Positions 34,238 to 54,682 of a stretch of DNA of 64,000 nucleotides are shown here, in pieces. How positions within the stretch are numbered: position 1 is the first letter of the stretch; each line of letters begins with the position of its first letter. A program made the translations under genes and the position numbers. The DNA comes from Thermoplasmata archaeon (GTDB lineage Archaea > Thermoplasmatota > Thermoplasmata > GCA-020350865). A model generated the notes under the pieces. It was not told the DNA's origin, did no database searches, and saw only the letters and a list, made by a program, of their open reading frames with translations. The stretch spans positions 407,772 to 471,771 of the forward strand of contig CP070751.1 in assembly GCA_020348445.1 (NCBI GenBank). Reading direction: 5' to 3'.

Positions 34238-35092
34238 ATGGAAGGTGATTGCATGGTAGACAAAAAAATTCCGATTTATATTGTGGATGCTTTTACAGAC
34301 GAAAAATTTAAGGGGAACCCTGCTGCAGTCTGTCTTCTCAATCAACGTCTAGATGAGGGTGTGATGCAGAAAATAGCTGCTGAGATGAACCTATCTGAGA
34401 CCGCATTTTTGACTTCTATCGAAGGTAAGCCAATTTCCGAATCAAAGAATTTTTCCCTTAGATGGTTCACTCCCAAGGTTGAGGTTCCTCTTTGTGGACA
34501 TGCGACCCTGGCCACTTCTGCTATACTTTTTAACGAGGTAGGATTGTCATCTGAAGAGGTATCCTATGAGACTAAAAGCGGGACTTTGACTGCAAAGAAA
34601 GTAGAGGAAGGAATACTTCTTAACTTCCCTTCCAATGAACCAGAGCCCATCGATCCTCCAATGGAATTACTAAAGGCCATGGGAATTTCTGAGTTTGAAG
34701 ATGTCGCTTTGGCAAAGAATGCCAAGAAACTTCTTGTTCATCTAAAAAACGAGGAAACTGTGAGGAATCTGCAACCAAATTTTGAAAAGATGATGCGAGC
34801 AACCACGAAGGAAAATATTATTGGTGTTATTGCCACCTCAGAAGGTTCTCCCCCCTATGATTTTGTCTCGAGGTTCTTTGCTCCGTGGGTTGGGATAAAT
34901 GAAGATCCTGTGACTGGGGCGGCTCATACTGTATTAACTCCGTATTGGTCCAAGATGCTGAATAAACAGAAGATGACTGCGTACCAGGCTTCGGAGAGAG
35001 GGGGCAAGTTGATTGTAAGTCTTGATCCTGACAATAGAGTTGATTTGATTGGTGACGTTGTCATTGTTTCAAAAGGGGAACTGTATTTATGA
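34238..35092 (+). CDS. PhzF-family isomerase/epimerase
   Basis: VDAFT...GNPAAV, NLSETAF, LRWFTP..EV.LCGHATLA and EDPVTGAAH. Confidence 0.9.
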   Translation: MEGDCMVDKKIPIYIVDAFTDEKFKGNPAAVCLLNQRLDEGVMQKIAAEMNLSETAFLTSIEGKPISESKNFSLRWFTPKVEVPLCGHATLATSAILFNEVGLSSEEVSYETKSGTLTAKKVEEGILLNFPSNEPEPIDPPMELLKAMGISEFEDVALAKNAKKLLVHLKNEETVRNLQPNFEKMMRATTKENIIGVIATSEGSPPYDFVSRFFAPWVGINEDPVTGAAHTVLTPYWSKMLNKQKMTAYQASERGGKLIVSLDPDNRVDLIGDVVIVSKGELYL

Positions 35093-36015: not shown

Positions 36016-37344
36016 TTATTCCTTCAAGCTGCACTCTTTGATTATCCTCTTTATTTTTTCAATCACATCCTGCGGATCCTTCCCCAGTATCCTTATCATG
36101 GCTTCCTTCCCAATGCCACCTTCATCATAGATGATATCCGGCACTTTACCTTGTTGTTTTATCGCGATCTCGGTTCCCCATTCCATAGTCGTTGTTGTTC
36201 CTGGTTCCTCTTTCCTATCAAAGGTCCCGATTTCAAAATCCAAAGAAGAACACCCTTCGATAATCTCCTGATCATATCTTATATTCATAGCACTCCTTTT
36301 ATCAGGCTCGAACTTCATTGCAGTCAATATGATTCTTGCGATGTGTTTTGAGGCCCCAAATTTCAATCCCCCCAAATGATCAATACCCTCTCCAACTCTA
36401 ACCAGCCTTCCCTCCAAGGCACAAACCTCATCCAAAGAAGAAGCCTGGGGCAGTGCATAACCAATGTTTATTCCAACCTCTGGCACGTAGAAAACTGGAA
36501 GCATATCCTGAACTTCGTAAACTGCCTTCTGCAATGCCTCCATCACCCCAAGTTCCTCAGGTGAAAACGAAGGTTGGGGAACAATACCTGCCACCTCAAC
36601 TCCCTTTCCTATGGCATATCCATGCTCTATGATATCAACAATGTGGAACTTGGCTTCAGAAACAGCTTCCTCGATTTTTTTTCCCTTGGCAATTAATGCG
36701 GTAATTAATGCAGAGAAAGTGCATCCAGTACCATGAAGTTCTCTTGGATAGCTCTTTGACATATATATTCTCGTTTCATTTCCATCATAGAGAACATCGG
36801 CTGCTAAAAGACCAGCCAAATGCCCGCCTTTTAAAAGTACATATTTACAACCACTGGCATGGATTTTTTTTGCCGCATCTTTCATATCATCAAATGATTT
36901 GATTTGTTCACCTAAAAGGGCCTCGGCCTCGGGAATATTGGGTGTGACCAATGTGGCCTTTGGCATGAGTTCATTTTTTAGGGCCTCGACAAAACCTGAA
37001 TCATGTAGGCTCCCTCCCACAGTTGCCTTCATCACTGGATCCACTATAAGGGGAAAATCAAAGGCCTCTAATTTCTCTGCCACAAGTTCCACCACATTTG
37101 GTGAGTACAGCATGCCGGTCTTGCAGGCCGAGATTTTTATATCCTCCAAGACAGCATCCAGCTGTCCCTCTACTGCAGTCTGGGGAACTGCATTTATCTG
37201 GTACAATTTCTGGGTATTTTGGGCAGTGACACAAGTAATAACACTGCACCCGTGCACACCCATATAGGAGAATGCTCTAAGGTCGGCTTGAATTCCTGCC
37301 CCTCCAGAAGGATCAGATGCTGCGATTGTCAAGGCAGATTTCAT
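36016..37344 (-). CDS. thiDN: Bifunctional HMP/HMP-P kinase - thiamine-phosphate synthase ThiN fusion
   Basis: SDPSGGAGIQAD, KTGML, VDPVM, TPN.PEA, KGGH and HGTGCTFS; ThiN PEVG.N, FGASKH.AR, TMEWG and D.GG.GKE.MIR. Confidence 0.92.
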   Translation of the reverse strand: MKSALTIAASDPSGGAGIQADLRAFSYMGVHGCSVITCVTAQNTQKLYQINAVPQTAVEGQLDAVLEDIKISACKTGMLYSPNVVELVAEKLEAFDFPLIVDPVMKATVGGSLHDSGFVEALKNELMPKATLVTPNIPEAEALLGEQIKSFDDMKDAAKKIHASGCKYVLLKGGHLAGLLAADVLYDGNETRIYMSKSYPRELHGTGCTFSALITALIAKGKKIEEAVSEAKFHIVDIIEHGYAIGKGVEVAGIVPQPSFSPEELGVMEALQKAVYEVQDMLPVFYVPEVGINIGYALPQASSLDEVCALEGRLVRVGEGIDHLGGLKFGASKHIARIILTAMKFEPDKRSAMNIRYDQEIIEGCSSLDFEIGTFDRKEEPGTTTTMEWGTEIAIKQQGKVPDIIYDEGGIGKEAMIRILGKDPQDVIEKIKRIIKECSLKE

Positions 37345-37507: not shown

Positions 37508-40090
37508 TCAACTCAAAGTAATATCAATCATCACATCCACAGCTCCGCCGTCATCGTCAGTCACAGTCAATTTGAAAGTATAACTTCCAGCTATTGAGTA
37601 TGTATGGGTTCTTGCATCAGTTGCTGTGAAAGGGTATGTCCCCCATGGACTTTGTATTGGATCAGGATTCGAACCATCGTTGTAAACAGTGTGAATATCA
37701 ATCCCTCCAACCCCAAAATCCCAGGAGAATGTAAGATCGTCAGTACCTTGATCTGATGCTGTTGCTTCGTATGTTATCTCATGATCCACGAAGTATTGAT
37801 TTGCACCGAAACTCCATTCCCAGGTCTCAGGGTGCTTGACATTGCAGGTGTGATGCAGACGTTCATCTTTCCCGTCTTCAAAGTCAATGATCACCCAAAC
37901 TGGAGTTGCTCCGTTCGGCTGGCCATTAATAGGATCGTCCTTGGGTGTGTATAATACTGTTATTTTTATGTATTGTGTCACATCGCATTTTATGTTATAA
38001 ATAGTCTCACTCTGGTCGTCTGGACTTCCTGGATATCTCGTAACTTCTGTATTTCCAATTATTGCATCATTTGCGTAAATGACCATCTCTACGTTGTGCC
38101 ATTTTTCCCCTGCTGCCCGAAGTGTGAAGTCGACAAGGATATAGGCCTCTACCTTCTCAATAGTGGGAGCTACATTATCCACAATGACATATGTGATGTA
38201 TTCTGCAACTGCACCATCATCATCAGTCACAGTGAGGGTTACTGAGTAATTACCATTGTCACCATATTCATGGGAAACCGAGTCTGTTGCAATAAATGGG
38301 TAGGTTCCTCCAATGGCACTTGGGTAGGGATCGGGGCTCGCTCCATCATTAAAGAAAATATTTGTTATGGTGGGTCCATATTCAAATTCCCATTTGAAAG
38401 TCAGATCATCACTTCCCGGGTCTGTAGAATCTGTGGTAATATCCACAAGATAGGGTTCGTTTCCGAAGAATGGGCCGAACTTTATGATCGTTGGCGCCAC
38501 ATTGTAGACTGAGACTGTTGTATTTTCGGAATCTGTAAAAACACCATCTGTTACCTCCAAAATTACATCTCCGAAATAATTATCGCTCCATGTATAATTT
38601 TCAAAAGGACTTGAAGACCAATTTGTGTCCCAAATCCCATCGTTATCGAAGTCCCATCTGTACTGCAAGGGATCTCCATCAGGGTCATATGAAAGGGAAG
38701 CATCAAAAGATATTGCTGATCCCTCAAATCCACTATATGGGCCATTTGCATTTGCTACAGGTTGTTTAAAGAGCCAACCGTTTGGATATATAAATGGATA
38801 AAAGTCATAATCAGTGGTTGGATGCGGTATCAACGTATCACCGATACCATCTCCTGCTATTGCATGTTTACCAGTTCCACTTCCATTATCTACACCAGTA
38901 TAATTAGACCAATAGTTACCCTCTAATAATCCAGGGTGGTGCCAAAAATTGGCATATGGATTATAATCCTCGGCTTGAATGGTATTATCAATAATATTGT
39001 TGTGATAAATGGTGTTGTTGGATGATCTTATAATATAAAAGCCGTAATCGTAATCCGAAACAGTATTTCCTTTAACGATATTGAGATTAGAAGATTGGTA
39101 AAGACCTATACCCAGCCAGCACGAGTATTTCGAACCTGATAGGATGTTATCTTCGATAATGTTGTATGAAGATCCCCAAAGGTTAAGGGCCCATCGACCA
39201 TTGGAAGATAAATTGTTGTTTATTATTCTGTTGTTTGATGAACTACGAAGGCCGAGTCCATCTATACCACTTGCATCGTTGTTTGTTATGGTATTATTTG
39301 AGGAGTGGGAAAGTGAGATACCGACCTCATTTCTTAAAAAGTTGCTCGTTACATTGTTCCCACTGGAATACGAGAGAACGATACCAAATCCCTTATTTGA
39401 TATGGCGTTGGTACCTGTGACGTGATTCCCACGGGAATCATTAAGTAAGATACCAATCCATTCATTCGATGATGCCAAGTTATTGACTATTAGGTTGTTA
39501 TCTGACGAGTACAGAGATAATCCATTACCTTGATATGAGCCGTAAATTCCATTGTTTGATAAATTATTATTTGTTATTTTGTTGTTAGAAGATGACCAAA
39601 GAAAGATACCATCTGCACCGTTTCTGAAGACCTTATTACCCTCTATTTTGTTGTTTGAAGAATAGAGTGTGATACCATTAGATCCATTGAATACAGAAAA
39701 ACCTGTTACATTCACTGAATTTGCTTTAATGAAGACAACATTCCCAGCTCCACCACCATCTATGATGGTTGTTTCCCTATCCTCACCTTCCATGTTTAGA
39801 GCCTTATCTATTTCCACATTTTCATAATATTTGCCTGCATATACATGCACTGTCCCCCCTCCTGCAACAGCATCCACACCATCTTGAATAATATCAAAAT
39901 GGTCTACTCCCCAACCTGGAGTTGACGGATTAAAGTCATCATCAACCCATACTTCTGTGGGTGAACTTGTGGGATTGTTTATTAGGTCCATTCCATCTCC
40001 GGAATTTATCGATGCAGCTAATGCAAAAACGCTAATCATAATCATTAGACACAACCATATACATAACACCCTTGGTTTCATGTATTTCAT
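37508..40090 (-). CDS. Secreted NosD/CASH beta-helix protein with PKD domains and an unknown inserted domain
   Basis: Signal peptide; VWVDDD...IQDGVDAV..GGTVHV..G.Y.ENV; many SSNN.I..N repeats; NYWS.Y.G.D..GDGIGD; PKD Y.WDFD.DG. Confidence 0.85.
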   Translation of the reverse strand: MKYMKPRVLCIWLCLMIMISVFALAASINSGDGMDLINNPTSSPTEVWVDDDFNPSTPGWGVDHFDIIQDGVDAVAGGGTVHVYAGKYYENVEIDKALNMEGEDRETTIIDGGGAGNVVFIKANSVNVTGFSVFNGSNGITLYSSNNKIEGNKVFRNGADGIFLWSSSNNKITNNNLSNNGIYGSYQGNGLSLYSSDNNLIVNNLASSNEWIGILLNDSRGNHVTGTNAISNKGFGIVLSYSSGNNVTSNFLRNEVGISLSHSSNNTITNNDASGIDGLGLRSSSNNRIINNNLSSNGRWALNLWGSSYNIIEDNILSGSKYSCWLGIGLYQSSNLNIVKGNTVSDYDYGFYIIRSSNNTIYHNNIIDNTIQAEDYNPYANFWHHPGLLEGNYWSNYTGVDNGSGTGKHAIAGDGIGDTLIPHPTTDYDFYPFIYPNGWLFKQPVANANGPYSGFEGSAISFDASLSYDPDGDPLQYRWDFDNDGIWDTNWSSSPFENYTWSDNYFGDVILEVTDGVFTDSENTTVSVYNVAPTIIKFGPFFGNEPYLVDITTDSTDPGSDDLTFKWEFEYGPTITNIFFNDGASPDPYPSAIGGTYPFIATDSVSHEYGDNGNYSVTLTVTDDDGAVAEYITYVIVDNVAPTIEKVEAYILVDFTLRAAGEKWHNVEMVIYANDAIIGNTEVTRYPGSPDDQSETIYNIKCDVTQYIKITVLYTPKDDPINGQPNGATPVWVIIDFEDGKDERLHHTCNVKHPETWEWSFGANQYFVDHEITYEATASDQGTDDLTFSWDFGVGGIDIHTVYNDGSNPDPIQSPWGTYPFTATDARTHTYSIAGSYTFKLTVTDDDGGAVDVMIDITLS

Positions 40091-40336: not shown

Positions 40337-41212
40337 TTAAAATATTAGATGGTTTAAGATGCCCGCCTTTTCCTTATTCAGTTTGGTGCAAATGACTTCC
40401 TCTCTCCCTCCGATTGCCGAGATAATATCCTCCCTCTTCTCAACCTCAGCCAAAATCACAGTTGCCGGCCCTGTCCCAGAAATCCCAGCAGTCACAGCAC
40501 CAGCCTCAATCGCCTTCTTCGCAACTTCTGTATCCAATCCCATGGCCTCTCCATAAGCCATGCCGTTCATTCGAATCGCGGATATGTAATCACCTTTCAT
40601 TGCCAGGTCATGGGCCTCAGCCAGAGTCCCCCTGATCCTCTTCAGTCTTTGAATATCCACCTCGGATTTCCTGATCTTCATCTTGGGAACATGGATTATA
40701 ACCTCATAGTCCTCATCAAAGGGATACTGGTTCAATATCTCCCTTATGATATTATCCGTGACCACCACATTACCAAAATAAGTAGCGCAAGCATCGTCGA
40801 AAGCTCCCGTGAGTGTGACCTTGGCCAAAAGGGAAGCATTGATCCCCATATTGATTACTTCCATATCAGAATATTCCTTTCCAAGAGCCGCAAATGCCGC
40901 AAGCACGATGGCATTGGAAGCCGCACTCGAGCTTTTCAGTCCCCTCGATATAGGGATATCAGAAGTTGTGATTATCCTGGCTCCGTATTCTAATTCCAAT
41001 TCAAATTTTTTCAGAACCTCCAAGACACAATGCTTTGCTAGGTCTGTATTTTCGCCTTCGTCCCCCCGAATCTCCACCTCGAAAATACCAGGCTCATTTG
41101 TAAGTTCCACTTTCGCCTCGGTCTTTAGTGCGACTCCAAAGGCCCCACCTTTACCCAAAGCAATGCCGTTTATTATGGTAGCAGCACCGTGACAGTACGC
41201 ACTAGCTTCCAA
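40337..41212 (-). CDS. aroK: Archaeal (GHMP-type) shikimate kinase, TTG start
   Basis: GA.TI.N.IA.G.G.A.G, IP...GLKSSSA, TGAFDDA.A and GISGTGP. Confidence 0.92.
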   Translation of the reverse strand: MEASAYCHGAATIINGIALGKGGAFGVALKTEAKVELTNEPGIFEVEIRGDEGENTDLAKHCVLEVLKKFELELEYGARIITTSDIPISRGLKSSSAASNAIVLAAFAALGKEYSDMEVINMGINASLLAKVTLTGAFDDACATYFGNVVVTDNIIREILNQYPFDEDYEVIIHVPKMKIRKSEVDIQRLKRIRGTLAEAHDLAMKGDYISAIRMNGMAYGEAMGLDTEVAKKAIEAGAVTAGISGTGPATVILAEVEKREDIISAIGGREEVICTKLNKEKAGILNHLIF

Positions 41213-41224
41213 TACTTTTCCTCC

Positions 41225-42085
41225 TTATTTTTCAGTATCCAGTGCATCAAGAACCACTTTTTGCATAACATCGATAGGAGCAGATTCGCAAGTCCACTTC
41301 TCAAAGGCCATTACACCCTGATAAATGAACATCTCATAACCATATATCACCTTAGCCCCGCTCTTTTGGGCTGCCAAAACAAGTTCAGTATTTTTAGGTG
41401 AATAGACCATGTCAAATACGATTATGTCCTTTCTCAGTAGCTCTGGTGATATAGGACTGCCTTGAGGACCTCCTTTCATTCCCACAGGCGTGCAGTTTAT
41501 GATCATGTCAACATCTTCGATTATCTCCTCGATATCATCCAAAATGTTCACTTTGATTGTACCTTGGGATTTGAACTTTGTTGCCAATTCCCTTGCCCTT
41601 TCAAAGGTTCGGTTCGCAATGACTACATCCTTTCCCATCCTGGCCAAAGGCAATGCAATTGCCCTTGCAGCACCCCCGGCACCGAGAATCAATATTGTCA
41701 TGTGATGCTCAAGATCTATTTTATTTCTTCTAATTGCCTCGACTGCAGCAGGTGAATCTGTGTTGTAACCCGTGAGCTTTCCTTCATCATTTACGATGGT
41801 GTTCACTGCCCCAAGATCCTCTGCCAATTCATCCACATCATCCAGATGCTCCATGACCTTGATTTTAAAGGGGAGGGTCACAGAAAGTCCCCGAAAATTC
41901 CTTTTCTTAAGGTTTTTCATGGTATTGGCAAGTTCGCTTTCCTCGATTTCAAAGGAATCGTAAACGTAATCAAGACCTAACTTTTTAAATGCGGCATTAT
42001 GCATTTTCGGGGAGAGAGTGTGTTTTAAAGGTTTGCCTATTATTCCGCATATGCGTTTTTTGGAATTACTATCATTGCGTTTCAT
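41225..42085 (-). CDS. aroE: Shikimate dehydrogenase
   Basis: HTLSP.MHN, G.SVT.PFK, AVNT, GYNTD, LGAGGAARA, NRT, IN.TP.GM and DMVY.P. Confidence 0.95.
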   Translation of the reverse strand: MKRNDSNSKKRICGIIGKPLKHTLSPKMHNAAFKKLGLDYVYDSFEIEESELANTMKNLKKRNFRGLSVTLPFKIKVMEHLDDVDELAEDLGAVNTIVNDEGKLTGYNTDSPAAVEAIRRNKIDLEHHMTILILGAGGAARAIALPLARMGKDVVIANRTFERARELATKFKSQGTIKVNILDDIEEIIEDVDMIINCTPVGMKGGPQGSPISPELLRKDIIVFDMVYSPKNTELVLAAQKSGAKVIYGYEMFIYQGVMAFEKWTCESAPIDVMQKVVLDALDTEK

Positions 42086-42115
42086 GTTGTTTCACCTGAG
42101 ATCTCCCACCTCAAT

Positions 42116-42823
42116 TCATAGGTTTTCAAGGGCATCCCATAATTCCAAAAGCGTCCTTATATCAACCTGCCCGTCTTCCACCTTCTTCTCGGGGTCCACT
42201 GCGGCATATACCATCTCACATCCAATTAACGGGGCCAAAACCCTTGTAAATTGCCCATAGGACCCCATTCCCATGACAGTGTATTTGTGATTCAAATCCT
42301 TGGCTGTTTTTCCACCCTTGGTCACATTTAGCACATCTTCGAAATTGTTGCTAGTTAAAACCACCTTGGCTATATCCCCTTCAGTTTCCTTGCATTGTTT
42401 TATCAGGGCAAAAATCTCGGACCATGACGGTGTCTTAAAAAAATCATGATAGGAGATAATGGTTTTTATTTCCTCTTTTTTGGCCAAGGCAATCAACGGA
42501 TCCCTCAAATTCCCCTCCATTTTCAATTCCAAATCAATGTAATCAAAGCCTGTCGTTATCGCCTCTTCAAGCAAAGCTGTCCTTTTCTCCTCATCCTCCT
42601 TGTAATCGCCGCCATCCCAATAGGGGCGGATCGTTAAAATTAGGGGCAAGCCAGTGTCCTTCTTTATTTCAGATAATCGGTTCAATATAGAAGAAGAAAT
42701 TGGCTCTTTTAACTTATCCAGTCTCAGCTCAATTAGATTTGCACCAAGGGATTTGCATAAATCAGCTTGTGAGACTAAATCAGTTACGCTTTGTTCAGCC
42801 AATGAAACACATACCAAAGTCAT
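42116..42823 (-). CDS. aroD: Type I 3-dehydroquinate dehydratase (start reassigned to 42823)
   Basis: IELRLD, LTIR...DGG, YIDLE, ISYHDF..TP, KVV and MG..G..TRV. The longer ORF-track start overlaps the upstream gene. Confidence 0.9.
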   Translation of the reverse strand: MTLVCVSLAEQSVTDLVSQADLCKSLGANLIELRLDKLKEPISSSILNRLSEIKKDTGLPLILTIRPYWDGGDYKEDEEKRTALLEEAITTGFDYIDLELKMEGNLRDPLIALAKKEEIKTIISYHDFFKTPSWSEIFALIKQCKETEGDIAKVVLTSNNFEDVLNVTKGGKTAKDLNHKYTVMGMGSYGQFTRVLAPLIGCEMVYAAVDPEKKVEDGQVDIRTLLELWDALENL

Positions 42824-42836
42824 GCTCTCACGTTTT

Positions 42837-43877
42837 TTATTTCTCTTGGATGCTCTCATCCACCTTCGTCCCGAAATGCCTTCCCTTATCATCCATCCAT
42901 ACAAGTACAGAGTCGCCTTCATTCAGATCCACTATGGAAACAGGCTTTTCTTGGGAAATCAATCGTATAGTCTCGGCATTCTGGAGTATTATATTGAACG
43001 TTCTGCCTTCATATTCAGCTTCCAGGAAAACCATGGGCCTTTTCTCGATCTTCACCCTTCCGAGAATCACAGGCCTTGTGCTTCCCTGGCTGTCAATGAC
43101 AAGGACCTCGTCCCCGGACTTTAAATCGGACAGGTACTTTGTCTTTTCATTGGGGGCTAGAATATAAGAGTGAACAGGTCCAGCATTGACCCTAAAGGGC
43201 CTTGTGTCCGCAAACTCTGATTCAACAGATTCTGAGTGGACCAGGAACATGCCATTGGACTGCGAGCCTATTAGCATACCCTCGCCAACGTTCAACATAG
43301 AACACGTATCAATGCAGACCCTGTCCCCCATTCCCAGGGGTTTTAACTTGGTAATCCTGGCAGATACAAGGGAAAGGGAGCCTTTTTCAAATTCATCCAT
43401 AAATCTCCGAAGGTTGTTTATCCTATTAAAATCCACGGTAGATAAAACAACACCATCCACTCCAACCTCCAAAGTCTCGAAAAACAATTTTGCATCCTCT
43501 ACATTATTCACCTTAACAAGGAGTTTGGATTTCGAATTTTGAAATGCGGCAATAAGGTTTTCAACTGGTATAACCTTCCAGTTTTCGGCAGAAACAAGAA
43601 CATAATCCATCTTCCCTTCCAGGGCTTTGGCCCTCTCCTCATCGGTTTTATCTTGGATCTCGATGTGTTCCCCCTGTCCATCATCCATCTTGATTTTCCC
43701 CTCTGAAAGAGAAATCAAATTGAACTTTCCCAGTTTTTGGAATATCTCCTGATCCTCCTCTCTCACAATTATATCTGTGAAATTGTTTATCAGTGCAGTT
43801 ATGGCTATTTTCTTTCTAATTTCCTGCTTTTTGTGAACGTCCGAGTCTATCCATATGATTTTTTTCAACGTTTTCAC
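42837..43877 (-). CDS. aroB': 3-dehydroquinate synthase II (AroB'), GTG start
   Basis: W.VIP.ENLIA, LE.GVDGV, G.GDRVCIDTC, GMLIGS, RPFRVNAG.VHSY, VKIE.RP and LQNAETIRL. Confidence 0.95.
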   Translation of the reverse strand: MKTLKKIIWIDSDVHKKQEIRKKIAITALINNFTDIIVREEDQEIFQKLGKFNLISLSEGKIKMDDGQGEHIEIQDKTDEERAKALEGKMDYVLVSAENWKVIPVENLIAAFQNSKSKLLVKVNNVEDAKLFFETLEVGVDGVVLSTVDFNRINNLRRFMDEFEKGSLSLVSARITKLKPLGMGDRVCIDTCSMLNVGEGMLIGSQSNGMFLVHSESVESEFADTRPFRVNAGPVHSYILAPNEKTKYLSDLKSGDEVLVIDSQGSTRPVILGRVKIEKRPMVFLEAEYEGRTFNIILQNAETIRLISQEKPVSIVDLNEGDSVLVWMDDKGRHFGTKVDESIQEK

Positions 43878-44674
43878 CCTGTGATTTCCTTGTATGCATC
43901 ATCAACTTCGGCGTCCTGGCAGATGATTTTCACCAATGCCCGGGTCATTCCAATTATATTGTCATGCTGAAATATGTTCCTGCCAATGGAGATACCAGCG
44001 GCCCCTGCCTTGATTGCGTCGTGTACCATGGTAAGCACATCCATGTCAGAGTCGGTCTTGGGTCCCCCGGCAATGATAACAGGAACAGGGCATCCTGAGA
44101 TGACCTCCTTGAAGGTATCAATACTTCCCGTGTAATTTGTCTTAATCACATCAGCACCCAACTCAGCACCAAGTCTGGCCACATGTTTTACCAACTCAAC
44201 ATCAAAAGGGTTCTTTACCCCGGGCCCTCTCGGATACATCATTGCCAAAAGGGGAATCTGCCATCTATTGCACTGACCAGATATGAATCCCAGATCCTGC
44301 AGCATCTCAGGTTCTGTCTCTGCTCCCACATTCACGTGAATTGAAACAGTATCTGCACCCATTAATAGAGCCTCCTCCACCTCAGCAACCAATACCTTGG
44401 CATTTGGATCAGGGCTCATTTTAGTACTTGCAGAAAGATGAAGTATGAATCCAATATCAACTTGGGCTTTTTCAAGTCCAAATAAAGCATTGCCTTTATG
44501 AAGAACCACGGCAGTTGCACCCCCTTCTGCCACCTTTTTTATGGTATCCTCCATATCAACGATACCCTTTATAGGGCCTGAAGATACACCGTGATCCATT
44601 GGTACTATCACAAATCGTCCTGTTTTTTTGTCCTGAATCCTTCGCAGACGGATATTCTTTCCAAGGTCTGTCAT
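43874..44674 (-). CDS. aroA': 2-amino-3,7-dideoxy-D-threo-hept-6-ulosonate synthase (AroA')
   Basis: VPMDHG, HKG, HLSAST..SPDPN.K, VS.HVN.G, LAMMYPRG, AELGAD..KT.Y, AGGP and GRNIFQ. Confidence 0.9.
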   Translation of the reverse strand: MTDLGKNIRLRRIQDKKTGRFVIVPMDHGVSSGPIKGIVDMEDTIKKVAEGGATAVVLHKGNALFGLEKAQVDIGFILHLSASTKMSPDPNAKVLVAEVEEALLMGADTVSIHVNVGAETEPEMLQDLGFISGQCNRWQIPLLAMMYPRGPGVKNPFDVELVKHVARLGAELGADVIKTNYTGSIDTFKEVISGCPVPVIIAGGPKTDSDMDVLTMVHDAIKAGAAGISIGRNIFQHDNIIGMTRALVKIICQDAEVDDAYKEITG

Positions 44675-44705
44675 ATTCTATCACCAACCTTCCTGCTAAA
44701 TAAAT

Positions 44706-45641
44706 TCACAGCACTCCCGCAATAAACGAAAGTGTCAAAACAATGGTGAACGTCAAAATATAACCCTTGTGCAATTTTCTTGCCTTCGCTTTTGTATATC
44801 TTTTATATATGGAGCGGCAGAGATTGAAGCATATGAAGTTCCATACAAACACAACTGTTAAAATGAGTATTTGTAGTATGATATGGGTTTGATAGACAGA
44901 AAAATAGGGGATGGCCCAGATAACCAAACCGGGAAAAGAGAACGCAAAAGAAGTGGCAGCGGCAGCCTTGGGCCCGAAACGAACAGGTGTTGTATTTTTT
45001 CCACCTGCTTTGTCATTTTCAAGGTCCCTTAAATCCTTTGCCAGGGTTTCGGCAATGGCCATAAAGAGCATCAAGGCTATAAGGAAGTACAGCCCGTTAA
45101 ATACGTTAACAAGAGCTATGTTCTCATACCGTATAAGATATGCAGCTATCGCAAAATAATAAAGCAGTCCAAATCCCACCCAGAACAGCTGGGAGATTAT
45201 GGGGCGGCCGTCCATCTTAAGTGGCTTCATGGCATATTGATAGGACAGTAATATCAACAAGAAGGCAGAAAGGAATATCAAGATATCGAGGTAGAATGCC
45301 AAAATCAATCCAATAGAATACAATATGATGGCTTGATTCCTGGCAGCTTTCTTTGAAACAACACCAGTGCACAAGGGCCTTTTCTTTCTCGATGCCTCTG
45401 AACTTCTGCAATCTGAATTAAAGTCCCCAAGGTCGTTCATGGTACAGGCTCCTGCATCTGCAATCACGGCAGTCATAATAAATAGTATAAAATGGGGATT
45501 TGGAGCATGTTGGGCAATGATGGCATAAAAACCCATTGAAGCAAAAACATCGAGCCATACAAGTTGCTGCGGCCTAGTTAAAATGAAATGGCCCTTTAGC
45601 TTCTGGCCCAATGTGAACTTCTTTTTTTCCAATTTCTTCAC
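44706..45641 (-). CDS. UbiA-superfamily membrane prenyltransferase, GTG start
   Basis: About 8-9 TM segments; Asp-rich NDLGDFNSD...RP...G and KDLRDLEND...G..TTPV..G; Y...P.K. Confidence 0.88.
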   Translation of the reverse strand: MKKLEKKKFTLGQKLKGHFILTRPQQLVWLDVFASMGFYAIIAQHAPNPHFILFIMTAVIADAGACTMNDLGDFNSDCRSSEASRKKRPLCTGVVSKKAARNQAIILYSIGLILAFYLDILIFLSAFLLILLSYQYAMKPLKMDGRPIISQLFWVGFGLLYYFAIAAYLIRYENIALVNVFNGLYFLIALMLFMAIAETLAKDLRDLENDKAGGKNTTPVRFGPKAAAATSFAFSFPGLVIWAIPYFSVYQTHIILQILILTVVFVWNFICFNLCRSIYKRYTKAKARKLHKGYILTFTIVLTLSFIAGVL

Positions 45642-46960
45642 GCGCCTTCAACTACCTCGGATTTACCAGATACCGCATCAACAACCCTGGAAAGGGGTTT
45701 TCCCGGTCGAATCTCGCTGTAATTGTACAAACTCCCGGGAGGAACCAGCATAACCTCCACGTTCTCCTTTAACACAGATTCGAAGTTGGATTTGATCTCG
45801 TTCTTCAGATTTGGATATTGATCCCTGTCCCTGTGCTCGGCAATTATCTGCGTGCGGCCTTTCATTACCTTGATCTTGTACCAGACACCGTTTAATTTTG
45901 ATTTGTAAAGCATCTCCTCCAGCTCAATTGGGAAGAACTTCTTTTTACCAATTGATAACTCAGTGCGCTTTCGTCCCAGGATCTTCATTGTGGGAAGGGG
46001 AAGACCGCAGGGACACTGGTCCTTTTCTATGATAATCACATCCCCTGTTTCGTACCTGAGAATGGGCATGGCCTCCCGCCATGTTGGGGTGACAACTGAC
46101 TTTGCCCTCTCCCCAGGCGCAGCCTCAGTGCCGTCATCATGATATATCTCAGTGAACATGACAAAGGACGGCAGGTGCAGCACGTTATTTTCGCAGGGTA
46201 TCGCCGCTCCGATTTCGTTTTGTCCAAGAAGTGATAGGAATTTTGCACCGTACAGATCGCCAAGAACCTTTCCCCTGGAATTTGCACAGGGCTCTGCCCC
46301 TGAGACAATCAATTTGATGCCTATGCTTTTTGGATCAACACCCTGGTCCATGAGAATGTTGGCATAGGAGAAGGCATCAGTTGCTGCGGCACCCAAAATC
46401 GTGGGTCTGAGCCTCTTCAGGGCATCAGCCACCTCAAGGGGAGGGTACATGTTGTTTCGTGTACCCATGGGAATTATGGTAACCCCTGCTTTCTGATTTA
46501 TGAGATCGGCAGAACGTCCTGCAAGGGTTCGGGTGTAGGGATAACATAATGCAACCCTATCCTCGGGGGACATTAACTTCTGAAACACAGGAAGGCATAT
46601 TGCTAGGTCAATGGACCTCTCAAGCTCGTCTTTGGTAACCCAGATGGGAACATGTCCTCCTGTTGTACCTGAGGTCTGGGAGTAAATCAGGCATTTTTGC
46701 CCTGGCGTAACTGCCAGCATATCAGTGGGGTCAATTTCCACAAGTTCGGATCTTTTAGTAAGGGGAACCTTTTCCTTGAAATCTTTGATGCTCTTGATAT
46801 CCCTTCCCTTAACGCCAGCAACTGTCAATTTCCTGGAATAGAATTTACTTTTATAGGCGTAGTCCACGGCCTTTTTTAGACGTTTTAAGACCGAGCTCTC
46901 CTTATCTGCCATCTTGATTATACCAGGAAACTTCTGCAACATCTTTGCCTTAAAACCCAT
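45638..46960 (-). CDS. Phenylacetate-CoA-ligase/F390-synthetase-like adenylate-forming enzyme
   Basis: P-loop TSGTTG, GAEP, GQNE.G and MP..RY.TGD...ILGR; PL..R..L N-terminal signature. Confidence 0.85.
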   Translation of the reverse strand: MGFKAKMLQKFPGIIKMADKESSVLKRLKKAVDYAYKSKFYSRKLTVAGVKGRDIKSIKDFKEKVPLTKRSELVEIDPTDMLAVTPGQKCLIYSQTSGTTGGHVPIWVTKDELERSIDLAICLPVFQKLMSPEDRVALCYPYTRTLAGRSADLINQKAGVTIIPMGTRNNMYPPLEVADALKRLRPTILGAAATDAFSYANILMDQGVDPKSIGIKLIVSGAEPCANSRGKVLGDLYGAKFLSLLGQNEIGAAIPCENNVLHLPSFVMFTEIYHDDGTEAAPGERAKSVVTPTWREAMPILRYETGDVIIIEKDQCPCGLPLPTMKILGRKRTELSIGKKKFFPIELEEMLYKSKLNGVWYKIKVMKGRTQIIAEHRDRDQYPNLKNEIKSNFESVLKENVEVMLVPPGSLYNYSEIRPGKPLSRVVDAVSGKSEVVEGA

Positions 46961-46970
46961 AACATACCTC

Positions 46971-48047
46971 CTATGCTCTCCTATTCATAAAATCGTACCG
47001 CAATCGATCTTTACGGGGAATTATTGAATCCTGGGGAACGTACCCTGACAACATCAGATGATCTGCGCAAACAATTGCAGATACTGCCTCTGCCACAACA
47101 AGAACCCTGGGTGTATAGTTCGCATCGAACCTGCCCTCAGTTGCCATTTTCGTGTTCTTCATGGTCCTTAAATCCACGCTCTTTTGGGCTATTAAAATCG
47201 ATGGTGTGGGCTTCACCGCAAACCTGAACACCACAGGTGGTCCATAGGTGATTCCCCCGAGAACCCCACCAGCGCGGTTTGAGCTTGTGGTGACAGAGCC
47301 TCCTTGTGTTACAATGGGATCATTGAATTCCGAAGCTCTCATGCGTGCAGAATCTAGCCCGTCTCCCAACTCGAAGGTCTTTATTCCAGGTATATTCAGT
47401 ATGGCGTGCCCCAAATCGGCCTGGAATCTGTTGAATGCCGGAGCGCCCAGGCCCGAGGGAAGATTTTGAATCTGAATCTCAATTATCCCCCCTGTTGTGT
47501 CGCTGTCCCTCTTGGATTGCTCAGCCAACTTTTCAATGATTTGTTCTAAATTGTTATTATCCACCTTTACTCCGCCAAGCTCAAGCATAGTGCTTTTTAT
47601 TGCTATCTTCTTGAGAAGACAAATTCTCTTGGCAACTGCACCAGCTGCAATAGTCGATACCCAGGTCCTTCCGCTGGCCCTGGATCCCCCTCTCCAGTCG
47701 ATATGACCGTACTTCATCCTGTACGTCAAATCGGCATGCCCTGGCCTTGGAGTGTGCATTATCTTTTTGTACTTTTCGCTCTCCACGTTCGAGTTCCTGA
47801 CTATAATTGAAATCGGAGTTCCGATGGTGTAGCCCTCGAAGACACCGCTTAAAATCTGGAAGTTGTTCTCCTCGACACGTCTTGTCAGAAGGGGATAAGG
47901 GACATCTCTGTCAAGCTCACTTTTTATATGCTGGCGAGAAAGTCTTATTCCTGCTGGGCATCCGTCGATTACACAGCCAATTGCATCTCCGTGGGATTCT
48001 CCCCAGGTTGTGACCCTGAAGATGTTTCCCAAAGTGTTTCCTGCCAA
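46971..48047 (-). CDS. aroC: Chorismate-synthase-like flavoprotein (divergent), TTG start
   Basis: TWGESHG..IG.VIDG.P, PRPGHAD, GG++G, N..GG.LGGI..G and .AVKPTPSI. Several signature positions are altered (see findings). Confidence 0.85.
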   Translation of the reverse strand: MAGNTLGNIFRVTTWGESHGDAIGCVIDGCPAGIRLSRQHIKSELDRDVPYPLLTRRVEENNFQILSGVFEGYTIGTPISIIVRNSNVESEKYKKIMHTPRPGHADLTYRMKYGHIDWRGGSRASGRTWVSTIAAGAVAKRICLLKKIAIKSTMLELGGVKVDNNNLEQIIEKLAEQSKRDSDTTGGIIEIQIQNLPSGLGAPAFNRFQADLGHAILNIPGIKTFELGDGLDSARMRASEFNDPIVTQGGSVTTSSNRAGGVLGGITYGPPVVFRFAVKPTPSILIAQKSVDLRTMKNTKMATEGRFDANYTPRVLVVAEAVSAIVCADHLMLSGYVPQDSIIPRKDRLRYDFMNRRA

Positions 48048-48066: not shown

Positions 48067-49011
48067 CTACTGGACGAAAACCAATTTTCTTTTGGATGAG
48101 GGGTCGTCAGCCAGTTCGCGAACAAAAAACTTGCCTTTTGAGCTCAATTCAAATAACATAACAAATAATATGGGAAATATCGAGGCTAAAAAGAATCCTG
48201 TGGAAAACTGCCATGCAGTGTATATGGAATCAAAAAGTGCCAATGTCATTAGGATCAATATAAAAGGAATATAGGCGACAACTCCAATCAATACTTTTAA
48301 TTCAATGCCATTTGTGGGATTTTTCTTGGCTCGAATCATATTGACTATTGTGATTCCTGATATGGCCCCAAATCCCAGAAGAAAACCTCCGAGGATTATC
48401 ATCACCTGATGTTCAAAATCATACGGAAACTGATAGACATAACTGTTGAGCATCTGAATGGATATTACCCCGAACAATATTGGTAAAATGCTCCCTTTGA
48501 TCATTCGGGTTCTGTATCTGTAATTCGAGAACCGCTCTTTCTGTTTGTCAAAGAGACTTTCCTCTTGGGCTTCGGTTCCAGTCAGCTCATCGAGATCTGA
48601 CAGATAATCCTCCATTTCCTGCTCCTCGGTTTGTGTAAGTACCCCTTCTGCCACCTCGGCTTCAGCTTCTTCATAGGGCTCCTTGATCTCTTCGGCAACC
48701 TCTGTCCCCTCAGGTGCAGCAGCTCCTTCCTCCTCTGTAATTTCCAAATAGAAGTTGCATGTATAGCAGTAGTATCTGTTATATTGCTGTATATATGCGG
48801 CCTTTTGATTGCATTTGGGGCATAAATATTCGGCTGTTTCTTTTATTTCAGGTTCTGGTTGTGCTTCCCTTTCCTCCTCTTTTTCCCCAGGCTCTTTTGA
48901 CGTCACATACTTGTTGCAGGAGAAGCAGTAGTATCTGTTGTTTTCCTTGATAAAAGTGGCCCTTCTGTCACAAGAGGGACATTTAATCTGAACATCTTCT
49001 TCCAAAGACAT
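48067..49011 (-). CDS. Membrane protein with two N-terminal Zn ribbons, acidic linker and about 4 TM helices
   Basis: CPSC-x14-CFSC and CPKC-x14-CYTC, a Glu-rich linker and four hydrophobic segments. It ends 19 nt before aroC. Confidence 0.75.
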   Translation of the reverse strand: MSLEEDVQIKCPSCDRRATFIKENNRYYCFSCNKYVTSKEPGEKEEEREAQPEPEIKETAEYLCPKCNQKAAYIQQYNRYYCYTCNFYLEITEEEGAAAPEGTEVAEEIKEPYEEAEAEVAEGVLTQTEEQEMEDYLSDLDELTGTEAQEESLFDKQKERFSNYRYRTRMIKGSILPILFGVISIQMLNSYVYQFPYDFEHQVMIILGGFLLGFGAISGITIVNMIRAKKNPTNGIELKVLIGVVAYIPFILILMTLALFDSIYTAWQFSTGFFLASIFPILFVMLFELSSKGKFFVRELADDPSSKRKLVFVQ

Positions 49012-49173: not shown

Positions 49174-51060
49174 TCAAAAAACCTCTACAAGGGACCTTCT
49201 TCCCACTGGAATCATAAGAAGGTCAGCTGCGATTATAAGGCCAGATACCGCAACAATTAGAGTGGGTATCTCAGGCAAGCCCCGCTTTGTGGGGGGTGTA
49301 AGTCCTGGAATCAGATCAATTCCCTGGGGCAGATATCTCTGATCTCTGTTGTAATTGATAAACACCATAACAGGGTGTTTTGATTTGACCTTCACTGTAG
49401 AGCCCAAGGTTATGTTCTCCCAGTCCAAATGGATCTCCTCGCTGTCCCCATCATCAACTGCTATTCGGGGAGTGGAATCCAGGGCATAATAGTTGTGGGG
49501 GTCCCTCGTGGTCCATTCAGGGGGCTGTTTGAACTGGGTATCTTCGATCATCATGTCCATGTAGTAGTAGCTGCTTTCCGAGAAATCAAAGGTGACAGAC
49601 TCATGGACGTCCATTTTGGCAGAGTACGGTTTGATAAGCATATCGAAGTCCACTTCTACATCATTGTTCCCCTCTCTGAGGTTCACGACAGTGAGATATG
49701 CCTGGCTCCAGATTGGAATCTCGAATTCTGTTGATGCAGGATAGGGCACCCAGCCGTGAGGATAGAATTCAGTGATTTTTTTGTAGACAGTGAAGTATTC
49801 TTCCCCAGACATGCTTCTCCTATTATCTTCCCTCAAATACCATGTACTGTTGGCGAATGTGTAGACCAGTATGGGATCGCTTGACCTTAGATGCGCCCAT
49901 TCATATGAGGAATATTCCCGTAATTTGTAGGCAACCTTGAAATCGAACAGTCTGAGCTCACCCGGATTTAAATATCCTTTGAACGTGCCTTGATTGCCGT
50001 TTTTGTCCTTTAAATCGATTGTTGCCCCAGTGGGAGCCGAAATAAGTATTTTACCGAAACAAGGGAATAGAAAGTCTTTTCCGTCTTTTCCAAAAACCTG
50101 GACAAATCCCTGATCCGACTGTATGCCCGCAACTATGGACACAGGTTTGTCGGCACTGATTAGAACCAGGTCATCGTCGAATCCGTACTGCTCAAATATG
50201 GGATTACGGGTATAATCCCAGCCTTCGAACCTGTCAAGGATGAGAGTGGCATCGTCGTTTTTGTCAGAATAATCCCATACATTGACAGTTGTATCTGCCT
50301 CCAGGGCTGAAATCCAGCAATCTCCCGTAATTCTGGTAAATATCTTTTTTCCGTAGGCAGAGTAAATGCCCTCCCATCCATCCCAGTAGTAATCCACGAT
50401 ATAATCATAGCCTCTGTCATCCATGGTTCCCATTGGAAATAATTTATGGTGCATTACTGAGATGGGATAGTTGCTTGTAACCTTGACAATCCCGGAGATC
50501 ATTCGAAAGCCCTGGCCAACCATCCAAGTGTTTATCTGAATCTGTCTTGTTTCGTACTCTCCCAAATGAATGGTCTTTGTGAGATTTTCAGGTTTTTGAA
50601 TCTGATCCAACCAAACTATTTCTGCGCCATCACCCAGTACCCATTTTCCACATACCCCCAAATCACAATCGAATATTGTATCATTTATTGCGGTGCCGTT
50701 GAGCCATTCAATACGGATTTTTGCACCGTTCTCATAGGAAAAAAATTGAATGTTGCTGAAATTTGCCATGGGGTAGCTTCTATAGGTTGTATCTTCATAT
50801 CCTGCCCACCATGTATATATTCGATCCTGCATCAAGACAGTGGGGGGTGGAACATAGAATATAAAGTAATCGTTCACAAATGTTGTAATGTCCGAGGAGT
50901 GATAGTCAGTATGTTCTACTTGCTCAGATGTCACCCTCATAAAATCGGAAACTGCGGTGTCCATGGATTGTCTGTGTAAAAAGATATCGCTCATGGGCAG
51001 GAAGATAAGACCCACAATACATATTATCAATAATATGGGTTTTATAGCTCTAAGGAACAT
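49174..51060 (-). CDS. Membrane-anchored surface protein with repeats resembling the IgGFc-binding N-terminal domain
   Basis: N-terminal signal/TM; repeated (I/V).S(D/N)(K/Y)P(I/V).V strands; C-terminal LPEIPT plus TM plus RR. Confidence 0.7.
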   Translation of the reverse strand: MFLRAIKPILLIICIVGLIFLPMSDIFLHRQSMDTAVSDFMRVTSEQVEHTDYHSSDITTFVNDYFIFYVPPPTVLMQDRIYTWWAGYEDTTYRSYPMANFSNIQFFSYENGAKIRIEWLNGTAINDTIFDCDLGVCGKWVLGDGAEIVWLDQIQKPENLTKTIHLGEYETRQIQINTWMVGQGFRMISGIVKVTSNYPISVMHHKLFPMGTMDDRGYDYIVDYYWDGWEGIYSAYGKKIFTRITGDCWISALEADTTVNVWDYSDKNDDATLILDRFEGWDYTRNPIFEQYGFDDDLVLISADKPVSIVAGIQSDQGFVQVFGKDGKDFLFPCFGKILISAPTGATIDLKDKNGNQGTFKGYLNPGELRLFDFKVAYKLREYSSYEWAHLRSSDPILVYTFANSTWYLREDNRRSMSGEEYFTVYKKITEFYPHGWVPYPASTEFEIPIWSQAYLTVVNLREGNNDVEVDFDMLIKPYSAKMDVHESVTFDFSESSYYYMDMMIEDTQFKQPPEWTTRDPHNYYALDSTPRIAVDDGDSEEIHLDWENITLGSTVKVKSKHPVMVFINYNRDQRYLPQGIDLIPGLTPPTKRGLPEIPTLIVAVSGLIIAADLLMIPVGRRSLVEVF

Positions 51061-53779: not shown

Positions 53780-54682
53780 TCAGGTCTCCTTTTTACCTGT
53801 AATTGTATAGCCAAAGACCGTGCTCACCGACAGTGCGTTGGACTTGCATTCCCTTGCGCAGCGGCCGCATTTGACACAATCCAGCTTGCTTTTTAAATCG
53901 TCCTCTGTGGGATCCAGGCCCATGGGGCAGACTTTTTTACACCTCTCGCATTGGGTGCACCATTTGAAATCGTACCTTCGCTTTATGGATGAGAACGGAT
54001 TCAAAAGCGAGAAAACGGCTCCCAGTGGACAGAAGTACCTGCACCATGCTCGGCCGTGTGTGAAATAGCTGAACGTGAAGTAAAATGCGAACAAGGCCAG
54101 ATGATATATGAGCCAAAAGGCGCTGACGGTCTGCCAGGTCAGCCAGTACGGCACCACCCCCAACAAAGCTCCGAAACACAGGTACCTGCACCAGAAAATG
54201 GAGGCTGTGAGGACGGCCAATATAACGACACCTACGAGGTAGATGTACTTCCACAATCTCAACCAATCAGGTGGTCTATATTTATGGGTACAAACCTTGT
54301 TGCAGGTGTCAAGGATAAGACCAAAGGGACACAGCCAACCGCAGATCGCCCTGCCCAATGCAGTGCCAAAACCAAGTACAACTCCAAATACATAAAAAGG
54401 CAACCGGAAGTTAATAACATACTGCTGCAGCATACCCACAGGACAGCCCAGCCACGCGAGCTCGCAGGCCTGGCAGTTGAGTGTGCACGTGATTCCACTC
54501 GTTCTCGGAATTGGTGCATGCCACCCACCGGGTAGCTTCCTGAAGATACCGAGTCTGTGAAATCCAAAACTAAGTACCTGGCTTACCAAACGGAACTTCG
54601 GGCCTCCCAGTAGTATGACAATCATCATAACCACTATGATTATGATCATACTTCCAAGGATTAACGGAAATTCTCCTGCCAT
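53780..54682 (-). CDS. Membrane polyferredoxin (NapH/MauN/4Fe-4S_5 family)
   Basis: C.LNC.AC...GCP.G.LQ, GR..CGW.CPFG, GR.WC.Y.CPLG, CxxCxxCxxxCP and CxxCxxCxxxC. Confidence 0.88.
   Translation of the reverse strand: MAGEFPLILGSMIIIIVVMMIVILLGGPKFRLVSQVLSFGFHRLGIFRKLPGGWHAPIPRTSGITCTLNCQACELAWLGCPVGMLQQYVINFRLPFYVFGVVLGFGTALGRAICGWLCPFGLILDTCNKVCTHKYRPPDWLRLWKYIYLVGVVILAVLTASIFWCRYLCFGALLGVVPYWLTWQTVSAFWLIYHLALFAFYFTFSYFTHGRAWCRYFCPLGAVFSLLNPFSSIKRRYDFKWCTQCERCKKVCPMGLDPTEDDLKSKLDCVKCGRCARECKSNALSVSTVFGYTITGKKET

Follow-up and report, generated by a model that had tools for sequence, protein, structure and literature searches.

What does an archaeon make when its shikimate operon lacks the sixth of the seven steps to chorismate and embeds an adenylate-forming ligase and a UbiA-family prenyltransferase among the genes for the other six? 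The question is raised by eight genes at positions 40337-48047 of a 64,000-nucleotide stretch of DNA from a Thermoplasmata archaeon (assembly GCA_020348445.1, contig CP070751.1, assembly positions 407772-471771), which as a whole we call the window. The seven-step shikimate pathway to chorismate is textbook biochemistry, and the enzyme of its sixth step, 5-enolpyruvylshikimate-3-phosphate (EPSP) synthase, the target of glyphosate, is regarded as indispensable. A preliminary description of this DNA, made from the letters of the sequence, had suggested that the operon may not make chorismate and that its product could be prenylated. The analysis reported here supports that suggestion: neither EPSP synthase nor the chorismate-using enzymes sought were found in the assembly, the linkage of the genes is conserved, the UbiA falls into a separate clade, and the chorismate-synthase homologue, here called AroC*, is without a carboxylate-binding Arg. 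On this evidence the operon probably belongs to a branch of the shikimate pathway that bypasses both EPSP and chorismate, and whose end product would be a membrane-bound prenylated ring compound and not the aromatic amino acids.

The operon and its missing step

The eight genes are co-oriented on the minus strand, and Pfam and NCBIfam searches returned the families named in the preliminary description. They are listed here from the upstream end, followed by the two linked genes of aspartate-semialdehyde synthesis; bit scores are given against the cut-off of the model where there is one.

46971-48047, minus strand: aroC*, divergent chorismate-synthase homologue, 358 residues (PF01264, 361 bits against a cut-off of 27; TIGR00033, 338 against 212; NF003793, 355 against 321)
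45638-46960, minus strand: ligase, PaaK/BagE/F390-like adenylate-forming enzyme, 440 residues (81-120 bits, far under every equivalog cut-off)
44706-45641, minus strand: ubiA, UbiA prenyltransferase of a cluster-specific clade, 311 residues (PF01040, 96.6 bits against 34.2)
43874-44674, minus strand: aroA', 2-amino-3,7-dideoxy-D-threo-hept-6-ulosonate (ADH) synthase (TIGR01949, 358 against 299; PF01791)
42837-43877, minus strand: aroB', 3-dehydroquinate (DHQ) synthase II (PF01959, 427 bits; NF002627, 383 against 392)
42116-42922, minus strand: aroD, type I 3-dehydroquinate dehydratase (TIGR01093, 173 against 139; domain from residue 37-38)
41225-42085, minus strand: aroE, shikimate dehydrogenase (TIGR00507, 285 against 200)
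40337-41212, minus strand: aroK, archaeal GHMP-type shikimate kinase (TIGR01920, 246 against 127)
55227-56597, minus strand: ask, aspartate kinase (PF00696, 154 bits, and ACT domains), cluster-linked in nine other loci
56675-57796, minus strand: asd, aspartate-semialdehyde dehydrogenase (PF01118 and PF02774), linked in several loci; supplies the substrate of AroA'

The gaps between the eight genes, in the same order, are 10, -4, 31 and -4 nt, then the aroB'/aroD junction, where the aroD start is uncertain, and finally 30 and 12 nt, in keeping with the range of -4 to about 30 nt described earlier. At the aroB'/aroD junction the mechanical open reading frame (ORF) calls overlap by 86 nt. Because the Pfam domain in AroD begins at residue 38, we read this overlap as a start-call effect: the true aroD start probably lies downstream of 42922, the overlap being due to the mechanical first-start rule. 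Further upstream, in the same orientation, come ask and asd at a distance of 7.2-9.7 kb, within the 7-10 kb given before.

Entry into the archaeal shikimate pathway, of the type described for Methanocaldococcus, is through ADH synthase (AroA') and DHQ synthase II (AroB'). The cluster has six of the seven enzymes of that pathway to chorismate, together with the linked ask and asd; the remaining step, EPSP synthase, was not found in the window, in the metagenome-assembled genome (MAG) from which the window comes or in its congeners. The cluster further differs from the archaeal pathway in that no chorismate users were found, in its divergent AroC and in the embedded ligase and UbiA. With nonsynonymous divergence (dN) of 0.15-0.20 and saturated synonymous divergence (dS), the approximate dN/dS is 0.05 or less, and by this measure the cluster genes are under purifying selection.

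EPSP synthase, earlier reported as missing from the window, was found nowhere in the assembly. Searches with PF00275 and TIGR01356 gave no match there and were positive in 14 of 14 known genomes used as controls. A hidden or divergent copy was considered and rejected: a custom hidden Markov model (HMM) built on 11 EPSP synthases of the same class, run unfiltered (--max) on all six-frame ORFs of the assembly, gave a best match at only about E 0.3-1. The preliminary description had let its reading hang on whether an intact copy lies elsewhere in the genome; none was found in the MAG, in four congeners, in one genome of the same order (G005) or, in whole-genome searches, in 13 of the 15 other genomes that carry an ortholog of the ligase. 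As a control, we took 15 genomes of the same class with AroC, from other families outside this order. All 15 have EPSP synthase, and its gene, aroA, directly adjoins aroC in 12 of them.

The enzymes that use chorismate gave a similar picture. PF00425, the TrpE/PabB/MenF family, was found neither in the window assembly nor in 14 of the 15 other cluster genomes, and prephenate dehydratase (PDT) was found in none of the 16. Prephenate dehydrogenase, both families of chorismate mutase (CM_1, CM_2), TrpA and MqnA/D were not found in the window assembly. Judged by its gene content, the organism looks like an aromatic amino-acid auxotroph, yet it retains six shikimate enzymes.

The source of the sequence bears on all of these statements. 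The assembly, presented as one 5.16-Mb contig, consists of about 350 contigs joined by 100-N spacers and is no closed genome; the first 2 Mb are ordered by falling length and the remainder is irregular. The window sits on a contig of 140 kb. Since the assembly is contig-joined and has a marker completeness of 81.7%, each statement of absence is probabilistic.

The altered chorismate synthase, the ligase and the prenyltransferase

The ligase-linked AroC copies were aligned with canonical copies of the same class, and residues were mapped via the fungal structure 7rca. AroC* keeps the motifs GESHG (H19), RPGHAD (R101, H104), GGSR (R123), GRFD (R306, D308) and TPR (R314), so that, by alignment to solved chorismate synthase structures and canonical archaeal AroC, equivalents of the invariant catalytic residues His19, His104 and Asp308 and of the phosphate-binding Arg123 and Arg306 are present. 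At the site of the invariant Arg two residues before a conserved Pro, R46 of the Paracoccidioides brasiliensis enzyme (PbCS), AroC* has Asp48. This position is Asp in 13 of 13 Thermoplasmatota copies and in the Lokiarchaeota-type (Loki) copy, and Gly in the copies from Hodarchaeota (Hod) and Hermodarchaeota (Hermod). Equivalents of R103 and R362 are retained, and the full set of carboxylate arginines (PbCS R46, R103, R362) is thus incomplete. In the P. brasiliensis enzyme, the two carboxylates of EPSP are held by R46, which is paired with R362, together with R103, and the 3-phosphate by R129 and R354 (2024 study, PMC11633415).

AroC* thus appears to retain the machinery for phosphate elimination with the charge reversed at one carboxylate-binding site. 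Such a reversal is what would be expected if the substrate had one carboxylate fewer, as shikimate-3-phosphate (S3P) has compared with EPSP. Other residues have changed as well: ExD has become ExN in all linked copies (N61 replaces Asp in the window copy), Thr has become Trp or Met (W129 in the window copy), and there are changes of H to F (GRHD to GRFD) and of I to Y/F. In the changes of T to W, H to F and I to Y/F, polar or basic pocket residues give way to bulkier hydrophobic ones. In a maximum-likelihood tree the Thermoplasmatota AroC* sequences form a clade apart from canonical AroC with 100/100 support and a stem length of 0.82. Compared with chorismate synthase AroC (EC 4.2.3.5; 1QXO, 5z9a, 7rca), AroC* is therefore alike in its full-length domain and its catalytic and phosphate-binding residues and differs in Asp48 for Arg, ExN, the Trp, GRFD, the long stem and a genome in which no supplier of EPSP was found.

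The ligase carries the motifs of the ANL enzymes, with the TSGTTG loop (96-101) and the C-terminal catalytic Lys421 invariant in 16 orthologs. Among NCBIfam models it is about equidistant from PaaK, BagE/FevW, FlxY and F390 synthetase: it scores 119.5 bits with BagE/FevW and 81 bits with F390 synthetase, all far under the cut-offs, and misses the PaaK equivalogs (TIGR02155, 99.9 against 646; NF041878, 117 against 700). Among solved structures the closest to it are AjiA1 (6wuq), a phenylacetate-CoA ligase (9s3l) and a PaaK-like ligase (6siw). With PaaK and the PaaK-like aryl-acid ligases (AjiA1 6wuq, 6siw, BagE/FevW) the cluster enzyme shares fold and motifs; it differs from the aryl-acid ligases in an identity of only about 28-33%, in missing the curated cut-offs by at least 5-fold and in its gene context. 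The substrates of the PaaK-like aryl-acid ligases are benzoate-type acids from the shikimate or aspartate-semialdehyde routes, and AjiA1 and 6siw, as we take it, adenylate such acids. About 98 proteins match the cluster ligase at E<1e-96 and the next matches are at 1e-31, a gap which marks the orthologs as a sharply bounded, distinct subfamily. A distant ortholog (42% identity) in a Promethearchaeota MAG (L032 9023-11338) lies beside an NAD-synthase-family gene with no aro genes near, so not all members of the family are cluster-linked.

The UbiA of the window has both Asp-rich motifs, NDxxDxxxD and DxxDxxxD, and seven hydrophobic segments. Its match to the model for digeranylgeranylglyceryl phosphate (DGGGP) synthase is 65 bits against a cut-off of 296, and its matches to the UbiA and MenA models are lower still (TIGR01474, 29 against 275; TIGR00751, 20 against 102); the match to the EboC model is weak (31 bits). 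The nearest solved or curated relatives are O-prenylating enzymes (DGGGP synthase 6m31 at E 4e-8, PRK12884, and matches to ChlG/BchG). In the UbiA tree the cluster UbiAs of both phyla in which the cluster occurs, together with one paralogue of the window genome, group in a clade of their own (100/100 support), and the UbiAs of Hodarchaeota and of the window find each other as best hits in reciprocal searches. The subfamily has about 50 members, all from the same lineages. Grouping of this UbiA with the DGGGP synthases had been named as an outcome that would count against a prenylated aromatic; the separate clade speaks otherwise, and the genome holds a far better candidate for DGGGP synthase at assembly positions 3915118-3915951 (245 bits).

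There are 18 UbiA paralogues in the assembly. Three of them surround a gene for a B12-binding radical-SAM protein at assembly positions 1208007-1212768 (L069 3182-7949), and one of these is the nearest paralogue of the window UbiA, inside the clade of cluster UbiAs.

Conservation and neighbourhood of the cluster

When one genome of each prokaryotic species was scanned, the ligase ortholog turned up in 13 Thermoplasmatota and three Asgard species. The arrangement recurs in the genomes that represent these 16 species, which belong to two phyla, as well as in additional metagenome contigs, and its recurrence in two phyla argues that it is not due to chance. None of the 20-kb loci holds an EPSP synthase. 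In Thermoplasmatota the core order is X314-aroC*-ligase-ubiA (X314 is described below), followed by aroA'B'DEK or by aroK-ask, and the ligases are 55-80% identical. In Hermodarchaeota one co-directional operon reads aroB'-aroD-aroA'-ubiA, then two polytopic membrane proteins, two anchored secreted proteins and finally ligase-aroC*; aroK and aroE run convergently. The Hodarchaeota locus has the Hermodarchaeota arrangement except for an inversion and a TnpB insertion, a TnpB/Cas12f-like transposon gene that lies inside the cluster (L050 6325-7488).

In a Promethearchaeota MAG, aroC*-ligase adjoins aroA', aroD and aroE. In another MAG, ubiA and the ligase adjoin aroA'B' and a P-loop (AroK/AroL-type) shikimate kinase (L068 5005-5529), which is non-homologous to the GHMP kinase. 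The use of a non-homologous shikimate kinase in one cluster points to S3P as the intermediate that matters. Linkage of the ligase and UbiA with aro genes in relatives, on which the preliminary description had made its reading depend, is therefore conserved in Thermoplasmatota and in Asgard lineages of the Hod, Hermod and Loki types.

The conserved unit also reaches upstream of aroC*, as far as 54682, and takes in genes that the preliminary description had passed over, for a membrane protein with zinc ribbons, a pair of large anchored surface proteins and a NapH-like polyferredoxin:

48067-49011, minus strand: X314, two zinc ribbons at the N-terminus, an acidic linker and four transmembrane (TM) helices; 19 nt upstream of aroC*
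49174-51060, minus strand: X628, secreted protein with a signal/TM segment at the N-terminus and a TM anchor at the C-terminus; conserved next to the cluster in 11 Thermoplasmatota loci
51089-53569, minus strand: X826, acidic secreted protein that bears a TSP3-type Ca-binding repeat and is anchored by a C-terminal TM segment; distantly paralogous to X628 and likewise conserved beside the cluster
53780-54682, minus strand: NapH/MauN-like membrane polyferredoxin, four hydrophobic segments and two 4Fe-4S motifs (PF12801 and Fer4; TIGR02163, 82.7 against 213)

In all Thermoplasmatota loci that extend far enough on that side, a homologue of X314 directly precedes aroC*. Orthologs of the polyferredoxin (443-628 bits) adjoin the cluster in 11 Thermoplasmatota loci, and all four genes are found beside it in most loci of this phylum, even where the gene order is shuffled. 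X314 was considered as a remnant of EPSP synthase and rejected, as it has no similarity to that enzyme and has zinc ribbons and four TM helices instead.

The Asgard operons (L049 6573-9885, L050 4645-9569) carry between ubiA and the ligase two polytopic proteins, with eight and seven hydrophobic segments, and two paralogous C-anchored secreted proteins. These four proteins matched no Pfam family, and no homology to X314, X628 or X826 was detectable. Pfam searches at E up to 5 and Atlas searches with X628, X314 and the Asgard membrane proteins gave weak leads only: X628 has a weak structural likeness to IgGFc-binding/DUF5719 surface proteins (Atlas), there was a match to FtsX at E 0.015, and the Atlas search with X314 gave no informative match. 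Taken together, the co-conserved membrane and surface proteins suggest that the product of the cluster acts at the membrane or the cell surface, and the NapH/MauN-like polyferredoxin may hint at a redox function in the membrane.

On the other side of the operon, three features were noted:

37508-40090, minus strand: secreted NosD/beta-helix/PKD protein, just past the downstream end of aroK, with more than 150 matching ORFs across the assembly
36016-37344, minus strand: ThiD-ThiN fusion (phosphomethylpyrimidine kinase and thiamine-phosphate synthase), between the operon and a PhzF/GNAT pair
34238-35092, plus strand: PhzF-family isomerase, at 5 kb from the operon, of a family whose substrates are dihydro-hydroxy-cyclohexadiene carboxylates

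Secreted beta-helix proteins are very largely expanded in this assembly. The PhzF-like gene was considered as a member of the pathway and rejected; it is syntenic in the nearest relative only and is treated as neighbourhood.

A proposed branch at shikimate-3-phosphate and its rivals

The pathway that we propose would begin conventionally: by family assignment, Ask and Asd would provide aspartate semialdehyde, and AroA', AroB', AroD, AroE and AroK would carry the carbon on to S3P. There AroC* may catalyse an FMN-dependent 1,4-elimination of the 3-phosphate, with S3P or an S3P derivative that has no enolpyruvyl carboxylate as its substrate, to give a product of the 3,4-dihydroxy-cyclohexa-1,5-diene-carboxylate type, which can aromatise to a hydroxybenzoate. 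The PaaK-like ligase would adenylate the ring carboxylate to form a CoA thioester, an ester or an amide, and may also drive aromatisation; UbiA would attach a polyprenyl chain. The order of the steps of AroC*, ligase and UbiA is left free in this proposal. At the membrane, where the co-conserved NapH-like polyferredoxin and anchored surface proteins suggest that the product is to be found, it could carry redox equivalents in the manner of a quinone, or act as a lipid carrier or anchor. We also considered UbiD, present in 15 of the 16 genomes, as support for a quinone pathway, and discounted it since UbiD homologues also serve the archaeal mevalonate pathway.

Parts of this scheme have counterparts elsewhere. 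The prenylquinone pathways (UbiA with 4-hydroxybenzoate, MenA with 1,4-dihydroxy-2-naphthoate, and MenE) likewise combine a ring acid derived from shikimate with an adenylate-forming enzyme and a prenyltransferase of the UbiA family. They differ in that they start from chorismate, whereas the window cluster has a PaaK-type and not a MenE-type ligase and neither MenF/PF00425 nor MqnA/D was found. In the bacterial ebo cluster, whose product is unidentified, the UbiA-like EboC occurs with a sugar-phosphate cyclase, which makes it a precedent for pairing a UbiA enzyme with one that forms a carbocycle. In the biosynthesis of ansatrienin and omega-cyclohexyl fatty acids, again in bacteria, shikimate is converted to cyclohexanecarboxyl-CoA, a precedent for shikimate that bypasses chorismate as an activated acid. 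Neither of the two bacterial systems shares a homologous gene set with the cluster, and neither has a chorismate-synthase homologue. Full-text literature searches turned up neither a description of this gene set nor any account of S3P as a substrate of chorismate synthase.

Several points weigh against the proposed branch. All genomes compared are MAGs, and the concatenated, incomplete assembly of the window has been described above. AroC* scores above the equivalog cut-offs for chorismate synthase. The mapping of Asp48 to R46 was made by motif alignment through 7rca and not on a structure of AroC*, and the open text of the P. brasiliensis study leaves unsaid which carboxylate of EPSP R46 binds (PMC11633415). 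In the AroC tree the Hod and Hermod copies of AroC* sit on a long branch of their own, unresolved among canonical sequences and outside the Thermoplasmatota clade. A single origin of the altered enzyme was therefore not adopted, though the Loki copy shares the Thermoplasmatota signature. The redox link of the NapH-like protein is a family resemblance below the model cut-off.

Exceptions to the pattern of absence also count here. Two of the 15 other cluster genomes (G042, G052) have EPSP synthase and one cluster genome has a TrpE-family gene (PF00425); these genes, on small or separate contigs, could be real or could be contamination. In G042 and G052 the EPSP synthase lies beside a second, canonical aroC on a contig other than that of aroC*-ligase, so that each genome has two AroC types. 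The contigs with the canonical pairs are 7.6 kb and 29 kb long, with a GC content 2-4 points off that of the cluster locus (L064, L065). There are two possibilities for these pairs: they are either genuine second pathways or binning contamination. The presence of a canonical aroA-aroC pair alongside aroC*-ligase fits two different functions for the two kinds of AroC.

Much of this evidence has to be weighed against three other explanations. The most serious of them accepts the branch at S3P and disputes the product, which would be non-aromatic, a cyclitol derived from shikimate and carrying a prenyl group in ether or ester linkage, acting as a lipid carrier or anchor and not as a quinone-like carrier. 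Here UbiA would O-prenylate S3P, much as DGGGP synthase forms an ether with a hydroxyl of its phosphorylated acceptor, or would make an ester of the carboxylate in the way of chlorophyll synthase; the substrate of AroC* would be lipid-linked S3P, and the ligase would join the acid to a further molecule, perhaps on behalf of the surface proteins. The O-prenylating relatives of the UbiA are in keeping with this, as are the bulkier, more hydrophobic pocket of AroC* (T to W, H to F, I to Y/F), the nearest relatives of the ligase, AjiA1 6wuq and BagE/FevW, which we take to be ester-forming rather than CoA-forming, and the paralogous anchored secreted pairs and polytopic membrane proteins carried by the clusters of both phyla. 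However, bulky substitutions can equally fill the space that a smaller substrate leaves in the pocket, no homology is detectable between the surface proteins of one phylum and those of the other, and the ligase is soluble and cytoplasmic. We regard this explanation as unlikely, although it is the strongest of the three.

That chorismate is still made, with an unrecognised enzyme (possibly the ligase, UbiA and/or a neighbour) in place of EPSP synthase and equally unfamiliar enzymes consuming the product, would agree with the equivalog scores of AroC*, with its retained catalytic His and Asp and phosphate-binding Arg residues, and with the position of ligase and UbiA next to aroC*, where relatives have aroA. 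Against it stands established enzymology, as neither adenylation nor prenyl transfer offers a chemical route to the transfer of an enolpyruvyl group from phosphoenolpyruvate; AroC* has an acidic residue at the site of the Arg that binds an EPSP carboxylate, nearly all cluster genomes yielded no known chorismate-using family, and G042 and G052 have a canonical aroA-aroC pair besides aroC*-ligase. This makes continued chorismate synthesis very improbable. We give least credence of all to artefact or coincidence, in which EPSP synthase and the aromatic amino-acid genes were left unbinned and the ligase and UbiA are chance neighbours in a normal operon. A MAG of about 350 contigs at the completeness given above, relatives that are MAGs throughout, and two cluster genomes with EPSP synthase would all allow for it. 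Yet the absences recur (EPSP synthase in 14 of 16 genomes, PF00425 in 15 of 16, PDT in 16 of 16), the sampled members of the class with canonical AroC all have EPSP synthase, the linkage of ligase and UbiA to aro genes holds in two phyla despite rearranged orders, and the active-site changes of AroC* are clade-specific.

With these alternatives set beside the proposed branch, our judgement tilts slightly toward the view that AroC* is an enzyme with a new substrate, S3P or a form of it without the enolpyruvyl carboxylate, and that it opens a chorismate-independent branch to a new class of prenylated membrane compounds in Thermoplasmatota and Asgard archaea. Shikimate-derived prenylated compounds are known in kind; what we rate as unusual is a repurposed chorismate synthase without EPSP synthase. 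The finding matters because six shikimate steps are kept under purifying selection where the sixth step of the pathway and the known uses of chorismate were not found, and this in two phyla that include the Asgard relatives of eukaryotes. If the proposal is true, the chorismate-synthase fold would have a second reaction, the shikimate pathway would have a new branch point at S3P, and there would be a prenylated lipid as yet unknown. Such a compound could be the membrane electron carrier of these archaea, or a lipid carrier for the co-conserved surface proteins, and the cluster would provide candidate genes for the membrane-soluble carriers or anchors of these uncultured organisms.

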